From Nanobdellota archaeon (GTDB lineage Archaea > Nanobdellota > Nanobdellia > Pacearchaeales > GW2011-AR1), in contig JBBSXC010000003.1 in NCBI GenBank assembly GCA_038045945.1, positions 96,001 through 160,000 of the forward strand: a DNA stretch of 64,000 nucleotides, given 5' to 3'. Of this stretch, positions 1,361-62,365 are shown in pieces. A model generated the notes under the pieces. It was not told the DNA's origin, made no database searches, and was given only the letters and a program-made list of their open reading frames with translations. How positions within the stretch are numbered: the stretch's first letter is position 1; every line of letters starts with the position of its first letter. A program made the position numbers and the translations under genes.

Positions 1361-1960
1361 ATGAAACCAACACTACACATAGTACACCCATACACTTACA
1401 AAGTTAAAGGAGACACTTTACTAGGAGGACCATTCCCAGAATTTAGAGAAAGAGACGAAAAAATATCACTATTAGTAAGAAGAGCAATAAAAAATGGTAC
1501 AGTAATGAGGCATTACAGTAACCCTATGGTTTCAGGGGAAGGATTTTCAGAATTAGGATGCTTACTATTTGACCCATTATTCAAGTGGAGCGTGAATAAA
1601 AAAATAATTGATTTGACAACAAGCTCAGGAGTACCAATTTCTGATGTCAGACCTGAAAAAATAAGTCCAGAAGACTGGGAAATATGTAAAAGACATTGGA
1701 CTACAAAAAAAGAACTTGCGAGGATAGTTAGTGATTCATCACCAAACGTTTTTATTGGAGGATACTTAGAAAACTGCGTTACTAACGCAGTAGGATACCA
1801 CCAAAAAACTTTTAGGAAAAAAGGAGAAGTAGCTTATTATGTTCCAGAATTATGTGCAAGAAGCCCAGATAGTTCGTGGGATGAAATAAAACCAAAACTA
1901 GAAGCTCTGGACGCTAAAGAAATAAGTTTTGAAAAAGCTTTAGGATTATTCGTACCTTAA
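1361..1960 (+). CDS. Hypothetical protein, possibly degenerate cysteine-hydrolase fold
   Basis: ORF; FIGGYLENCV resembles the isochorismatase GxxxxxCV segment; start moved to ATG 1361. Confidence 0.45.
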   Translation: MKPTLHIVHPYTYKVKGDTLLGGPFPEFRERDEKISLLVRRAIKNGTVMRHYSNPMVSGEGFSELGCLLFDPLFKWSVNKKIIDLTTSSGVPISDVRPEKISPEDWEICKRHWTTKKELARIVSDSSPNVFIGGYLENCVTNAVGYHQKTFRKKGEVAYYVPELCARSPDSSWDEIKPKLEALDAKEISFEKALGLFVP

Positions 1961-4796: not shown

Positions 4797-5375
4797 TTAC
4801 ATTCCTTTCTTCTTTTTTAACAAATCAATAATTTTTGGTGAAACAGAGGGCTTTCCATCAATAAGAGGATAACGATAAGGGAGAATTATTGATTCTACAT
4901 CATTAATCCTAACTTCCAACCTATCGCGAAATTTTAGTTCACCAAAAACTTTTTTGTTATTAACAATTTTGTTAACAACCCACACCGCATTATCGGTTGA
5001 TAATTGTTTATCACCAATATTACGAATATCAGCATCTGGCAAAAACTGCGTTAGTTCCTTATTAGTACGCTTCTTAGGAGGATAATCACCTAAGATGCCG
5101 CCAAAAACAAAAAATTTGAATTTTGCGGAATCATCAGGACTCAAGAGTTGATCAGCTTGAGGATCAAGAACACAAGAATAATTAAGACTCATCTTACTAA
5201 CAGAATCCTTAAACACTTTACCAAACTTAGAAATTTTAGACCTATCAGTTTTTGACTTAACATTTGTTAACCACAAATTATCCTTTCCAACAATTGAAGA
5301 AATTCTCTCATACTCAATAAGAACCCACTTAGAAACTCGCGGTTCCAAATGCTCAATAACAAATACGGCACTCAT
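4797..5375 (-). CDS. SPOUT-class SAM-dependent methyltransferase, Sfm1/DUF431-like
   Basis: VIEHLE..WVLIEY, LDP, FVFGGILGDYPP, QLSTDNAV, LPYRY motifs. Confidence 0.85.
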   Translation of the reverse strand: MSAVFVIEHLEPRVSKWVLIEYERISSIVGKDNLWLTNVKSKTDRSKISKFGKVFKDSVSKMSLNYSCVLDPQADQLLSPDDSAKFKFFVFGGILGDYPPKKRTNKELTQFLPDADIRNIGDKQLSTDNAVWVVNKIVNNKKVFGELKFRDRLEVRINDVESIILPYRYPLIDGKPSVSPKIIDLLKKKKGM

Positions 5376-5623
5376 CTTTTAGCCCTTATACTAGCTAAGT
5401 AATCACTCTTACTAACACCATTCTTAGGAACAACGTAAACTTTTGAACCTATCTGCAATCTATCACCAGGCATAACAAAACTCCTTATCTCTCCATCAGG
5501 ACCACCAATGATTAATCCACCACTATGAGAAGAATAATTTAGTCCGCCAGCAATCTCACCATTAAGAGTCGTAACCAGGCCTATCTTACCTTCAAGATCA
5601 TTAACAGTCAATACTGAAACCAT
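5372..5623 (-). CDS. Hypothetical protein
   Basis: ORF overlapping methyltransferase start by 4 nt; upstream TATA. Confidence 0.6.
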   Translation of the reverse strand: MVSVLTVNDLEGKIGLVTTLNGEIAGGLNYSSHSGGLIIGGPDGEIRSFVMPGDRLQIGSKVYVVPKNGVSKSDYLASIRAKR

Positions 5624-5669
5624 AAAAATAACAACAAAAACACTATTTTTATACTTTATTAATAATAAG

Positions 5670-5819
5670 TTACTTTCTTTTCTTCTTAGAACCAGACTTC
5701 TTCCTTAAAGACTTAATAACTTTTTTAACAGTTTTCTTTTTACCTTTAAACAATTTCATAAACTTCTTAATTTTAGAATGCCTAGTCTTTTTCTTATTAC
5801 GCTTAACTCTTTTTGCCAT
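5670..5819 (-). CDS. 49-aa very basic (Lys/Arg-rich) peptide
   Basis: MAKRVKRNKKKTRHSKIKK...KKKRK; 27 of 49 residues K/R, no acidic residue; ATG at 5819. Confidence 0.65.
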   Translation of the reverse strand: MAKRVKRNKKKTRHSKIKKFMKLFKGKKKTVKKVIKSLRKKSGSKKKRK

Positions 5820-5839
5820 TGTTCTTTTTTTGATTTTAA

Positions 5840-6070
5840 AGAGCTGACGATCTGGACTCAGTGAGGAGTGCCTCAACCGGTTCGGATTAATGTGCTTAAC
5901 CTCTCCGCCAGTTATTAAAGGTTATCTCCGTCGTGCTTGTGATGTGCTTAATGAGTACAGGTTTCATAAAGCGAGTTATAGTCCAGTCGCTAAATTAATT
6001 GTTAGCACCCAACATAGGCTTATACAAGTACATCCTTTCCAGGACAACTGATTTATCCCCAGTCAGCTCT
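5840..6070 (-). ncRNA. Putative structured non-coding RNA of unrecognised family (~230 nt)
   Basis: 9-bp terminal helix AGAGCTGAC/GTCAGCTCT, several internal hairpins with G-U pairs favouring the minus strand, TATAAATA 30 nt upstream, no credible ORF. Confidence 0.65.
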
Positions 6071-6092
6071 AAAATAATTCAAGACTAAGAAG

Positions 6093-6100
6093 TATTTATA
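6093..6100 (-). promoter_or_regulatory. TATA box for the putative ncRNA
   Basis: TATAAATA on minus strand; first T is 30 nt from the terminal helix, the same spacing as TATA-to-ATG in leaderless genes here. Confidence 0.6.
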
Positions 6101-6177
6101 GTTGACTTACCACTAAAGAATTACTAGAAAAAGGGCTTTTTGACAAAACTTAAAAACCTGCGATTAGTAAATAATTC

Positions 6178-7404
6178 ATGAGAAGACACCTAACACCAGT
6201 AGGAACAGGAGTTAGCCTAGGATCAATGATCGTACCTAACGAATTCTTAGCAGGACTAGAAGTAGTTGACTTCAAAAAAGGAGCACTAAACCCCGGTGAA
6301 ATAAGCACTCTAACAGTTGAAATAATGCAAAAAGCAAGCGGGGGCGACATGAGCAAAGACGGAAAAGGAGAACTAAAGGGAGATGGAATAGGAATAAAAT
6401 CAAGAAGATGGCTAAGACCCGTAGGAAAAAAAGAAGAACTAAAAGATTTAGCAATTAAAGCAGCAATTAAAGCAGTAGAAAGCACAGGAATGGACCCTAA
6501 AGAATACTTATCAGAATTAAAAGTAATAATGTCAGCCCACGAAAGCAGGATACCAAAATACCCAACACTAGCACAAAGAGTACAAGAAGGACTAACAGAA
6601 CATTATGGAATAAAACTAAACATTGATTACGCACAAAACACATCTTTTGCTTGTGCAGGATTCCCAATAACACTACTAACAGCAAACGCATTAGTAAGAG
6701 CAGGAGAAGTAAACGGTAACGTATTAGTAGTTGGAGCAGAAGACGTTAAAGGCCTGGTAAGAAAAACAAAGGAAGGAAGATACGACGTGAGCATTTACTT
6801 ATTCGGAGTTGGAGCAGCAGCGATGGCATCAAAAACAACAACAGAAGAACACGGAGCACAAACACCAGGATACGTCAAAAGCATGCCCTACATGTCAGAA
6901 GTAGAAAGAAAGGCAAGAATGAGCAATAGTGCAGCATTATATGACGATGTTGACACACACATAACAATGGCTGATGGAGCATTAGTAAAATCAGGAGCAA
7001 TAGACTACATGAGAAGATCAATTATTGATCAAATAAAGAAACACAACCCTAAAGGAGAGAGAAGAGTAGTTGTTTGCCCACACCAAGCTAACGGAAGAAT
7101 CAACGGACCACTAGAAAGAGATTTAAGAAGAGAAGGAATACTAAGAATTACAGACTTATACTACGCTTCCGGACTAGAAGATAATGGGAACATATCAGTA
7201 CCAGCATGCCTAACAGGATTTGACTCTATGGTAAGAGGACAAGACTACCAAAGAAGAGCAGTTAGAGAAGGACAAATACTGCCTAACGACCTAGTAATAA
7301 TAACAGCAGTAGGAGCAGGGATGAGCGGATCAGCAGCATCAATAATAATGCCGCCAAAAGCATTAGCTTACATGCCAGAAATGGTAAGAAGACAATACTC
7401 ATAA
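6178..7404 (+). CDS. fabH: 3-oxoacyl-ACP synthase III (FabH)-like condensing enzyme, divergent
   Basis: GIKSRR, FACAGF (Cys), VLVVGAE, FGVGAAA, HQANGRI (His), GNIS (Asn), AVGAGM. Confidence 0.8.
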   Translation: MRRHLTPVGTGVSLGSMIVPNEFLAGLEVVDFKKGALNPGEISTLTVEIMQKASGGDMSKDGKGELKGDGIGIKSRRWLRPVGKKEELKDLAIKAAIKAVESTGMDPKEYLSELKVIMSAHESRIPKYPTLAQRVQEGLTEHYGIKLNIDYAQNTSFACAGFPITLLTANALVRAGEVNGNVLVVGAEDVKGLVRKTKEGRYDVSIYLFGVGAAAMASKTTTEEHGAQTPGYVKSMPYMSEVERKARMSNSAALYDDVDTHITMADGALVKSGAIDYMRRSIIDQIKKHNPKGERRVVVCPHQANGRINGPLERDLRREGILRITDLYYASGLEDNGNISVPACLTGFDSMVRGQDYQRRAVREGQILPNDLVIITAVGAGMSGSAASIIMPPKALAYMPEMVRRQYS

Positions 7405-59326: not shown

Positions 59327-59399
59327 GCCTTCGTAGCTCAATGGTTAGAGCGATTGCTTCGTAAGCAATAGGTTGAGGGTTCAATTCCCTTCGAAGGCT
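59327..59399 (+). tRNA. tRNA-Thr(CGT)
   Basis: GCCTTCG/CGAAGGC acceptor, ATTGC-TT CGT AA-GCAAT, GAGGG-TTCAATT-CCCTT. Confidence 0.95.
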
Positions 59400-59447
59400 T
59401 TGCCTAATAGTTAAGTTTAAATTAGTAAAAAATTTGGTGATATTTAC

Positions 59448-59519
59448 GCCTCAGTAGCTCAGTAGTAGAGCACGAGTTTAGTAAACTCGGGGTCGGGGGT
59501 TCAATTCCCTCCTGAGGCT
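59448..59519 (+). tRNA. tRNA-Thr(AGT)
   Basis: GCCTCAG/CTGAGGC acceptor, CGAGT-TT AGT AA-ACTCG (anticodon 59480-59482), GGGGG-TTCAATT-CCCTC. Confidence 0.9.
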
Positions 59520-62208: not shown

Positions 62209-62259
62209 GGAAAAATAAAGATTAATTAAGCCTTTTTAAACTCTTTTAATAAAGAAAAA

Positions 62260-62343
62260 TGCGGGGGGAAGGAATCGAACCTTCGCAGGCACTAAGCCAT
62301 TGGATCTTAAGTCCAACCCGTTTGACCGCTCCGGCACTCCCGC
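62260..62343 (-). tRNA. tRNA-Leu(TAA)
   Basis: GCGGGAG...TTGGA-CT TAA GA-TCCAA, long variable arm, GAAGG-TTCGATT-CCTTC, CCCCCGCA. Confidence 0.95.
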
Positions 62344-62365
62344 ATATAATTAAAACATTAAAACA

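Follow-up and report, generated by a model that had tools for sequence, protein, structure and literature searches.

Beyond ribosomal RNA (rRNA), transfer RNA (tRNA), RNase P RNA and the RNA of the signal recognition particle (SRP), we know of few large structured RNA classes in archaea, and of none that is specific to the DPANN symbionts. The biology of these symbionts has been inferred almost entirely from protein genes. The closest systems described so far are RNAs released at the bulge-helix-bulge (BHB) motif, whose hBHBh' geometry, as PMC7714728 outlines it, is that of a 4-bp helix and two 3-nt bulges on opposite strands, set between two further helices. In Haloferax volcanii, the 5' untranslated region (5' UTR) of HVO_1309 contains a BHB intron of 46 nt that is excised by the splicing endonuclease and recovered as a circular RNA, and what that article says of the intron itself includes neither a conserved fold nor a dedicated partner (PMC7714728). 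The circular pre-rRNAs and 23S rRNA of archaea are described as arising from a processing stem that is made by the flanks and carries a BHB motif, excision and ligation then giving the circle (PMC12918454, PMC7714728). The permuted SRP RNA of Thermoproteus, the structured RNA of a ribonucleoprotein, is also reported to mature through circularisation (PMC4731332), and the tRNA-intron circles called tricRNAs (PMC4536317) as well as archaeal circular RNAs (PMC3326292) are presented as stable circles coming from tRNA-type splicing. Here we examine an RNA encoded on the minus strand at positions 5840 to 6070 of a stretch of 64,000 nucleotides from a Nanobdellota archaeon. By the window we mean this whole stretch; all coordinates are window positions, the RNA is read on the minus strand, and the genome to which the window belongs (G000) amounts to 847 kb in 7 contigs and is 93% complete.

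Like the HVO_1309 intron, this RNA appears to leave an mRNA leader at a BHB motif and to give a circular product; it differs from it in being about 200 nt long, conserved in other orders of the class, built of at least seven covarying helices and two tertiary helices, and inherited together with a protein. It shares its type of processing with the circular pre-rRNAs, but it matches no rRNA model, is patchily distributed and is followed by a protein gene, and the junction of its circle lies in a 7-nt loop that is engaged in a loop-loop pairing. The Thermoproteus SRP RNA belongs to a universal family that is already known, whereas the RNA studied here matches no family, and an ordinary SRP RNA match is found elsewhere in its genome. 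While the maturation pathway is known, neither the RNA family nor its fold nor its association with a dedicated protein has been described before, as far as the literature searched and Rfam 15 show. To our knowledge, no report presents tRNA-intron circles or archaeal circular RNAs as complex folds that are conserved and have a promoter and a protein gene of their own, and we know of no earlier BHB-excised circle that is itself a conserved complex fold with a protein gene of its own. If our reading is true, this would be a BHB product that differs in kind from a discarded intron or an rRNA intermediate. In any case, it gives poorly known organisms an RNA family whose fold is well supported, whose maturation follows a defined route and for whose expression there is evidence from several environments.

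The gene and its putative promoter are as follows.

5840 to 6070, minus strand: precursor RNA, from the 5' strand of the outermost helix (P1) to its 3' strand (P1'); matched over 5837-6071 by covariance model R1 with 184.8 bits, and by homologs found with blastn and nhmmer
6093 to 6100, minus strand: TATA box TATAAATA, predicted from sequence, its centre about 26 nt before the first base of P1

A conserved structured RNA had been proposed at this place, with this same box 30 nt upstream, in an earlier reading of the letters alone (hereafter the sequence-only reading). Both proposals stand: a TATA-like box is found at the same distance from the RNA in most of the 43 homologous loci that were printed, and the RNA itself is borne out by its homologs and their covariation. 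It is indeed from the comparison of homologs, and not from the folding of a single sequence, that the evidence above chance comes. The folding energy of the window sequence has a z of -2.15 on both strands, which discriminates neither the strand nor the reality of the RNA, and the GC content of the RNA region (0.41-0.43, against 0.20-0.35 on the side of the downstream open reading frame, ORF) is a modest rise that is not informative.

With blastn, the stretch was found in 12 of 60 relatives, from five families of the order, at 69-79% identity; ten full-length copies came from nhmmer. When 11 sequences were simply aligned with MAFFT, RNAalifold proposed 70 pairs, 41 of which show compensatory changes. 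A covariance model (R1) was built and then used to collect further copies, and a broader one (R2) served for the sample of the phylum. Over 62 distinct sequences, in alignments that were fitted to the nested helices of the model so that the counts for those helices lean towards it, 94.2% of the cells of the whole structure are paired against 76.9% in shuffles, and 63 of the 71 pairs show changes on both sides, a figure that none of 500 shuffles reaches. In slid controls, 32-40% of the cells are paired. The two tertiary helices (PK1 and PK2) and the central helix of the BHB motif were absent from the search models, so their counts are free of this lean. The elements of the fold, all on the minus strand, are listed here.

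6062 to 6070, minus strand: P1, 5' strand, outer BHB helix, predicted to stay in the 5' exon; pairs with 5840-5848
5840 to 5848, minus strand: P1', 3' strand of the outer BHB helix, predicted to stay in the 3' exon
6047 to 6051, minus strand: P2, 5' strand, inner BHB helix; pairs with 5858-5862
6032 to 6045, minus strand: P3, hairpin capped by a GNRA-type loop, GGAA; paired in 98% of cells, with exchanges among UA, CG and GC
6025 to 6031, minus strand: P4, 5' strand; pairs with 5933-5938, all 6 pairs changing on both sides
6005 to 6011, minus strand: P5, 5' strand; pairs with 5952-5958, all 7 pairs changing on both sides
5967 to 5994, minus strand: P6, hairpin whose loop holds CUGGAC (5981-5986) and then the conserved UAUAACU; 6 of the 7 stem pairs change on both sides
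5863 to 5932, minus strand: P7 arm, made of P7a, an internal loop AUAA/CA, P7b, P7c and an apical loop with AGGUU (5898-5902)
5852 to 5857, minus strand: PK1, 3' strand GUCCAG; pairs with CUGGAC (5981-5986) in the P6 loop
5959 to 5963, minus strand: PK2, 5' strand AACCU, in the strand that joins P6 to P5; pairs with AGGUU (5898-5902)

The paired ends that the sequence-only reading had noticed are P1, in which all 8 modelled pairs change on both sides. In P2, 99-100% of the cells pair, one of the pairs being GC 47 times and AU 15 times. The hairpin GUCCU-GGAA-AGGAU is real and corresponds to P3, as is the GCGA/UCGC stem, which is part of P6. Four further helices of that reading have to be given up: UAAAUCAGUUGU/ACAAUUAAUUUA, GCCUA/UGGGU, AACCUUU/AGAGGUU and UGAGG/CCUCA show no covariation, their cells being paired at 71.9% against 71.6% in shuffles, with 147 of 500 shuffles doing as well, and the covarying P2, P5 and P7 take their place.

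The pseudoknot that had been suspected between CUGGACU and AGUCCAG is confirmed in the form of PK1 (CUGGAC/GUCCAG), which covaries though it lies outside the search model. Among 36 distinct sequences, 96.3% of its cells pair and 4 of its 6 pairs change on both sides; among the 62, these figures are 97.3% and 5 of 6. Homologs exchange the two strands to CGGAC/GUCCG, GGGC/GCCC or GAAC/GUUC, and PK1 gives the top signal in a scan for mutual information. The same scan brought out PK2 as a new, second tertiary helix. Paired in 94% of its cells and with two-sided changes at 4 of its 5 pairs, PK2 replaces a weak apical hairpin of P7 (GUUAA/UUGAU) that RNAalifold had drawn. P2, P3, P4-P6 and P7 would meet in a four-way junction, and this compact fold with two tertiary helices is strongly supported by the exchanges between homologs. 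The RNA is small enough for chemical probing, crystallography and cryo-electron microscopy (cryo-EM), and its partner protein can be made synthetically.

Many of the unpaired nucleotides are invariant (UAUAACU, GAUAAC, AAGCC and UAAGC). In a compact and doubly pseudoknotted fold, such stretches could form a ligand pocket or an active site, and the RNA could then be a small-molecule riboswitch or a self-acting ribozyme, which we consider quite improbable. The gene downstream is always the same tiny basic ORF, and not a metabolic or transport gene, which is unlike the known riboswitch classes; no riboswitch or ribozyme of Rfam matches; and the processing sites are those of a BHB motif, the substrate of a protein enzyme, rather than a self-cleavage site.

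This motif is formed by the flanks of the RNA, together with the inner helix P2, and predicts the ends of the mature molecule.

6055 to 6058, minus strand: BHB central 4-bp helix, 5' strand GGAU, in the 5' exon; pairs with GUCC (5854-5857)
6052 to 6054, minus strand: BHB 5' bulge AAA, predicted cut between 6053 and 6052; also a 3-nt bulge in the homologs that have the motif
5851 to 5853, minus strand: BHB 3' bulge AGA, predicted cut between 5852 and 5851
5852 to 6052, minus strand: mature circular RNA of 201 nt, A6052 being joined to G5852, from the permuted contigs of runs X3 and X7

The succession of P1, AGA, GGAU-GUCC, AAA and P2 satisfies the hBHBh' geometry, is the minimum-energy fold of the two flanks in the window, and is by its sequence a canonical archaeal BHB motif. 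The 5' strand of the central helix is GGAC in most relatives and GGAU in the window. Among the 62 distinct homologs, this helix has 4 of 4 pairs in 44, 3 of 4 in 6 and at most 2 in 12; it is also complete in distant members from other orders (L050-L053), and it covaries together with PK1 in two loci, L021 (GAAC/GUUC) and L038 (GGGU/GCCC). The 3' bulge reads AGA in 23 of the 34 homologs that our script classed as having the motif. At the canonical tRNA intron site the cut falls after the second nucleotide of each bulge, and the cuts listed above are placed accordingly. The genome encodes the two enzymes of the known pathway, EndA (PF01974, 91.6 bits, C4:267035-267277) and RtcB (PF01139, 556.8 bits). 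At L021, an insertion of about 50 nt, itself a hairpin, lies between the 3' bulge and the 3' strand of P1, and the outer helix spans it.

The circle itself is found in public metatranscriptomes. A search of public runs for words of the region 5600-6200 gave 24 runs from 21 studies, 22 of the runs being recorded as RNA, with 13-21% of the sampled words in each; the contigs of four listed runs were compared with the window, and the small word shares of the other 20 are not taken as evidence. Two runs from different studies, X3 and X7, each contain one contig of 231 nt that maps as a circular permutation of the RNA, at depths of 19.3 and 37.2. Its joint leads from 6049 back to 5849, that is 201 positions back, and with 3 ambiguous letters it is compatible with a junction between 6052 and 5852, so that it coincides with the two predicted BHB cut sites. 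The length agrees as well, since 231 is 201 + 30, as expected of a 201-nt circle assembled with words of 31 letters. The circles predicted across the homologs measure 186-211 nt, with a median of 202. Runs X1 and X2 contain a linear contig of 258 nt, at a depth of 3.1, which covers 5837-6058 and whose loose ends hold a 5' strand of P1 and, downstream, the start of a small ORF; this contig may stem from precursor RNA or else from carried-over DNA. The ORF and the flanks have no contig cover, which says nothing on their transcription. A tandem duplication of the DNA was considered as a source of the permuted contigs and rejected, since the genomic copies show no duplication and, in two sequence variants, the junction is exactly at the predicted sites. 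The circle does not seem to be translated by rolling-circle reading: there is no conserved stop-free frame, and only 1 of 36 predicted circles has such a frame. Taken together, a biogenesis that goes from the RNA's own promoter through the BHB motif, excision and circle formation to refolding is well supported. Surveys of metatranscriptomes for viroid-like circles will meet such chromosomally encoded circles.

The refolding step derives from an overlap between two pairings. GUCC (5854-5857) belongs both to the central helix of the BHB motif and to PK1, and the two pairings are mutually exclusive; from the sequence and its covariation, GUCC would alternate between the GGAC of the exon and the loop of P6. 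Before cutting, the exonic GGAC or GGAU would hold the 3' GUCC in the BHB motif; EndA would then cut both bulges and RtcB would seal the ends, as in the known pathway, leaving GGAC or GGAU behind in the exon. In the circle, P2 becomes a hairpin with the 7-nt loop GUCCAGA, and this loop, made of GUCCAG and one nucleotide of the bulge, would be free to pair with CUGGAC in the loop of P6. PK1, PK2 and the four-way junction would thereby complete the compact fold. The same four nucleotides would thus serve first as a processing signal and then in a tertiary contact.

Directly downstream of the RNA lies a small gene for a basic protein.

5670 to 5819, minus strand: small ORF of 49 aa, 55% Lys+Arg, on the same strand as the RNA and starting 18-20 nt after P1'

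The link to this ORF is, with the BHB flanks and their circle and the second tertiary helix, what the present analysis adds to the sequence-only reading. The ORF of the window is a divergent member of a family whose 39 aligned sequences share the motif GRxPSxKSKxSKVxKLIxLAK. A small Lys/Arg-rich ORF stands just downstream of the RNA, on the same strand, in 11 of the first 11 loci, and one of 40-90 aa is found downstream in 55 of 58 further loci. At L044 and L048 the RNA is followed by T-runs and has no ORF, and at L050 the basic ORF downstream has 27 aa. Across one set of 151 genomes of the order, the RNA is present in 38 and the protein in 31, all of which are RNA-positive; the 113 RNA-negative genomes gave no match to the protein, in a search that detected 4 of 5 known carriers as a control of its sensitivity. 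Each of the 34 protein matches immediately follows an RNA match. Neither Pfam nor NCBIfam has a family that matches this protein, and a search of 5.8 billion proteins returned only the name 'hypothetical protein', the ESM Atlas placing it in an unnamed archaeal cluster, so that no function came from these sources. No other neighbour is conserved: the commonest is common to 5 of 61 loci, and neighbours differ between loci.

Some proteins of the main family carry a CxxC just before the conserved motif. The most divergent copies of the RNA are followed by a different ORF, of 60 aa at L052 (1320-1499, minus strand) and 66 aa at L053 (151-348, minus strand), which starts with MVCxKLxKGxC and has several Cys and a Lys-rich tail, with no match in Pfam. 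The Cys residues and the CxxC of these small proteins may be the remnant of a zinc knuckle.

In most loci the gap between P1' and the ATG is -14 to +29 nt; such gaps, as a rule, leave no room for a separate promoter. In several loci the ORF is preceded by a Shine-Dalgarno sequence. From these two features, RNA and ORF most likely form one transcript, of which the RNA is formally a 5'-UTR intron. It could then be a regulatory intron that controls the small basic ORF, the circle being an excised by-product; under such control, a ligand or the basic protein itself would, by stabilising PK1, block the BHB motif and hence splicing. The mutual exclusion of PK1 and the BHB helix, both of which covary, speaks for this, as do the position of the ORF on the same strand at such short distances, the Shine-Dalgarno sequences of some loci and the precedent of the HVO_1309 intron, a 46-nt BHB intron in a 5' UTR by the account of PMC7714728; moreover, in the 12 of 62 homologs that lack the BHB motif, the RNA reaches up to the start codon or overlaps with it. 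On the other hand, conservation is far higher in the RNA than in the protein under its supposed control, the at least seven helices and two tertiary helices of the RNA are elaborate for the control of a single protein of 50 aa, the RNA persists at L044 and L048 with no ORF next to it, and the circle contigs reach depths of 19-37 in two runs, contig depth being a poor measure of level. We regard regulation of the ORF, possibly by a splicing switch, as the main rival of the reading that we favour, though clearly less probable than it, and the cis-leader that the sequence-only reading had listed stays a live rival, as the small ORF does follow on the same strand.

The reading towards which we lean, with a confidence only a little beyond even, is that the RNA is excised at the BHB motif and circularised, and that the stable circle acts in trans, as a particle with the Lys/Arg-rich protein of 40-90 aa encoded downstream in the same transcript. 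Several features favour such a particle: within the genus, identity is much higher for the RNA (79%) than for the protein (43%), the unpaired nucleotides of the RNA are strongly conserved, the closed circle assembles in two studies, and the RNA can stand alone with a T-run terminator (L044, L048). It looks like the RNA, rather than the protein, is the primary product.

Several points nevertheless weigh against this function. The patchy distribution of the RNA (14 of 151 near-complete genomes of the phylum) indicates that it is not core machinery, and the Shine-Dalgarno sequences of several loci indicate that the ORF is read from the same transcript as the RNA. The circle is known from assembled contigs of relatives that are 95-99% alike, not from raw reads of this organism; such contigs cannot give RNA levels, and they show the circle only, exon ligation not being observed. 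Finally, the 12 of 62 homologs without the 5' GGAC are unable to form the BHB motif and keep PK1. In about half of these 12, the TATA box is some 20 nt closer to P2 and an ATG follows within a few nucleotides after PK1, and no recurrent pairing was found when an alternative BHB motif was sought with sequence from beyond the ORF. In these homologs the RNA is probably a linear 5' UTR heading an mRNA, which implies that circularity is not essential and makes a role in cis plausible.

In a more far-reaching version of this reading, the circle and its Lys-rich protein would be a new kind of ribonucleoprotein, specific to symbionts of the Nanoarchaeota type and maturing through the conformational switch described above. 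In its boldest form, the competition between PK1 and the BHB helix would moreover regulate splicing, and such an archaeal splicing switch would set the amounts of circle and protein. We put this version forward tentatively, with a minority chance of being right.

The RNA cannot be assigned to a known family. A scan of the window at the Rfam gathering scores returned three tRNAs only, the region 5750-6200 gave no credible match to the RNA at E up to 10, and the loci of six relatives gave none at E up to 1. The literature, including surveys of circular and non-coding RNAs but not their supplementary tables, gave no description of it that we could find. The suggestion of a new class of non-coding RNA in the sequence-only reading is therefore supported, by the Rfam scans of the region and of the six relatives as well as by the literature.

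That reading had also allowed for a highly reduced RNase P or SRP RNA, to which a reduced or permuted form may be added, as the RNA has a terminal helix, a long-range pseudoknot and a size of about 200 nt, and the permuted SRP RNA of Thermoproteus is described as circularised (PMC4731332). This possibility is already contradicted, and we give it a very low probability. The genome has one match to each of these RNAs elsewhere, both below the Rfam cut-offs: for RNase P RNA a full-length one at C4:2325-2672 (49.4 bits, E 2e-13; cut-off 84) and for SRP RNA another, likewise full-length, at C3:162915-163175 (84.1 bits, E 9e-20; cut-off 96.5). Neither family matches the RNA even locally on 5750-6200, with the RNase P model (RF00373 and its clan) taken at E up to 10 and the SRP model (RF01857) on the same region, and the RNA is not found in most near-complete relatives. 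A strict search that recovers the BHB motif of the RNA studied here found none at the ends of the SRP and RNase P RNAs of this genome. On its contig, the RNase P RNA match follows the 3' end of the 23S rRNA gene (C4:825-1114, L001) at a distance of about 1.2 kb; this 23S gene is cut by the start of the contig.

As to its distribution, the RNA was found in 38 of 151 genomes in the sample of the order (11 of 69 among the high-quality ones), in 13 of 151 in that of the class and, with the broader model R2, in 14 of 151 near-complete genomes in that of the phylum. It is thus a lineage accessory and not core machinery. The record titles of the confirmed public matches name Nanoarchaeota, Nanoarchaeia, Woesearchaeota and Pacearchaeota, and in four cases 'Micrarchaeota', a label that is not confirmed. 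Public contigs were also scanned with loose motif patterns, at least 120 genome loci and at least 80 viral loci being scored and 37 others (L254-L290) remaining unscored; these scans are not estimates of distribution. Among the pattern loci scored, 26 of 120 genome loci are true by the model and 0 of 80 viral loci match it.

A patchy distribution, a circular form and the presence of two copies in some genomes (genus g105) could also point to a mobile or selfish element, such as a miniature inverted-repeat transposable element (MITE), a viroid-like replicon or an RNA borne by a virus. The scattered copies that a MITE would leave were looked for, and G000 has 1 match and other genomes 1-2, each copy having a promoter and an ORF of its own. 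On either side lie ordinary chromosomal genes that differ between loci, the RNA is encoded by DNA in every carrier, unlike a viroid-like RNA replicon, no viral locus among the 80 scored matches the model (37 further loci being unscored), and no ribozyme motif or family matches. A mobile element is already largely contradicted by these data, and we hold it for extremely improbable. The two copies of genus g105 were seen in 5 of 6 sampled genomes (G070, at C42:2310-2542 and C42:10683-10913, G087, G093, G094 and G098), and in G070, G093 and G094 each copy has a small ORF of its own.

Some distant copies lie next to genes of other stable RNAs. At L052, a single case, a 5S rRNA gene (1772-1885, minus strand, 59.1 bits) precedes the RNA by about 40 nt on the same strand, so that 5S rRNA, RNA and small basic ORF follow one another. 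Long tRNA matches adjoin the RNA copies of L050 (840-964, 125 nt) and L053 (682-792, 111 nt), these lengths being suggestive of introns.

Upstream of the TATA box of the window, a second element can be recognised.

6109 to 6114, minus strand: AGTGGT element, about 10 nt upstream of the TATA box; candidate regulatory site

AGTGGT, AGTAGT or AGTGAT recurs at the same place in many homologous loci, and a longer form, AGTGGT/AGTAGT(N)AG (6101-6117 of the window, minus strand), is conserved there in L004-L045, across many lineages. The element was considered as a promoter signal of the whole genome or of stable RNAs and dropped: AGTGGT is not enriched genome-wide in G000 (14 sites, against 10-19 in shuffles), and it was not seen upstream of the 38 tRNA genes, the RNase P RNA or the SRP RNA of this genome. 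It may be the site of a dedicated regulator.

Downstream of the small ORF, the window encodes an SFM1-like protein arginine methyltransferase (PF04252, E 1.4e-51; 4797-5375, minus strand), and the same PF04252 neighbour is found at L004, a locus of the same genus. Far from the RNA, the tRNA genes of the window lie at 59327-59519, where Thr-CGU and Thr-AGU stand in tandem, and at 62259-62344, where a Leu-UAA gene is found on the minus strand.

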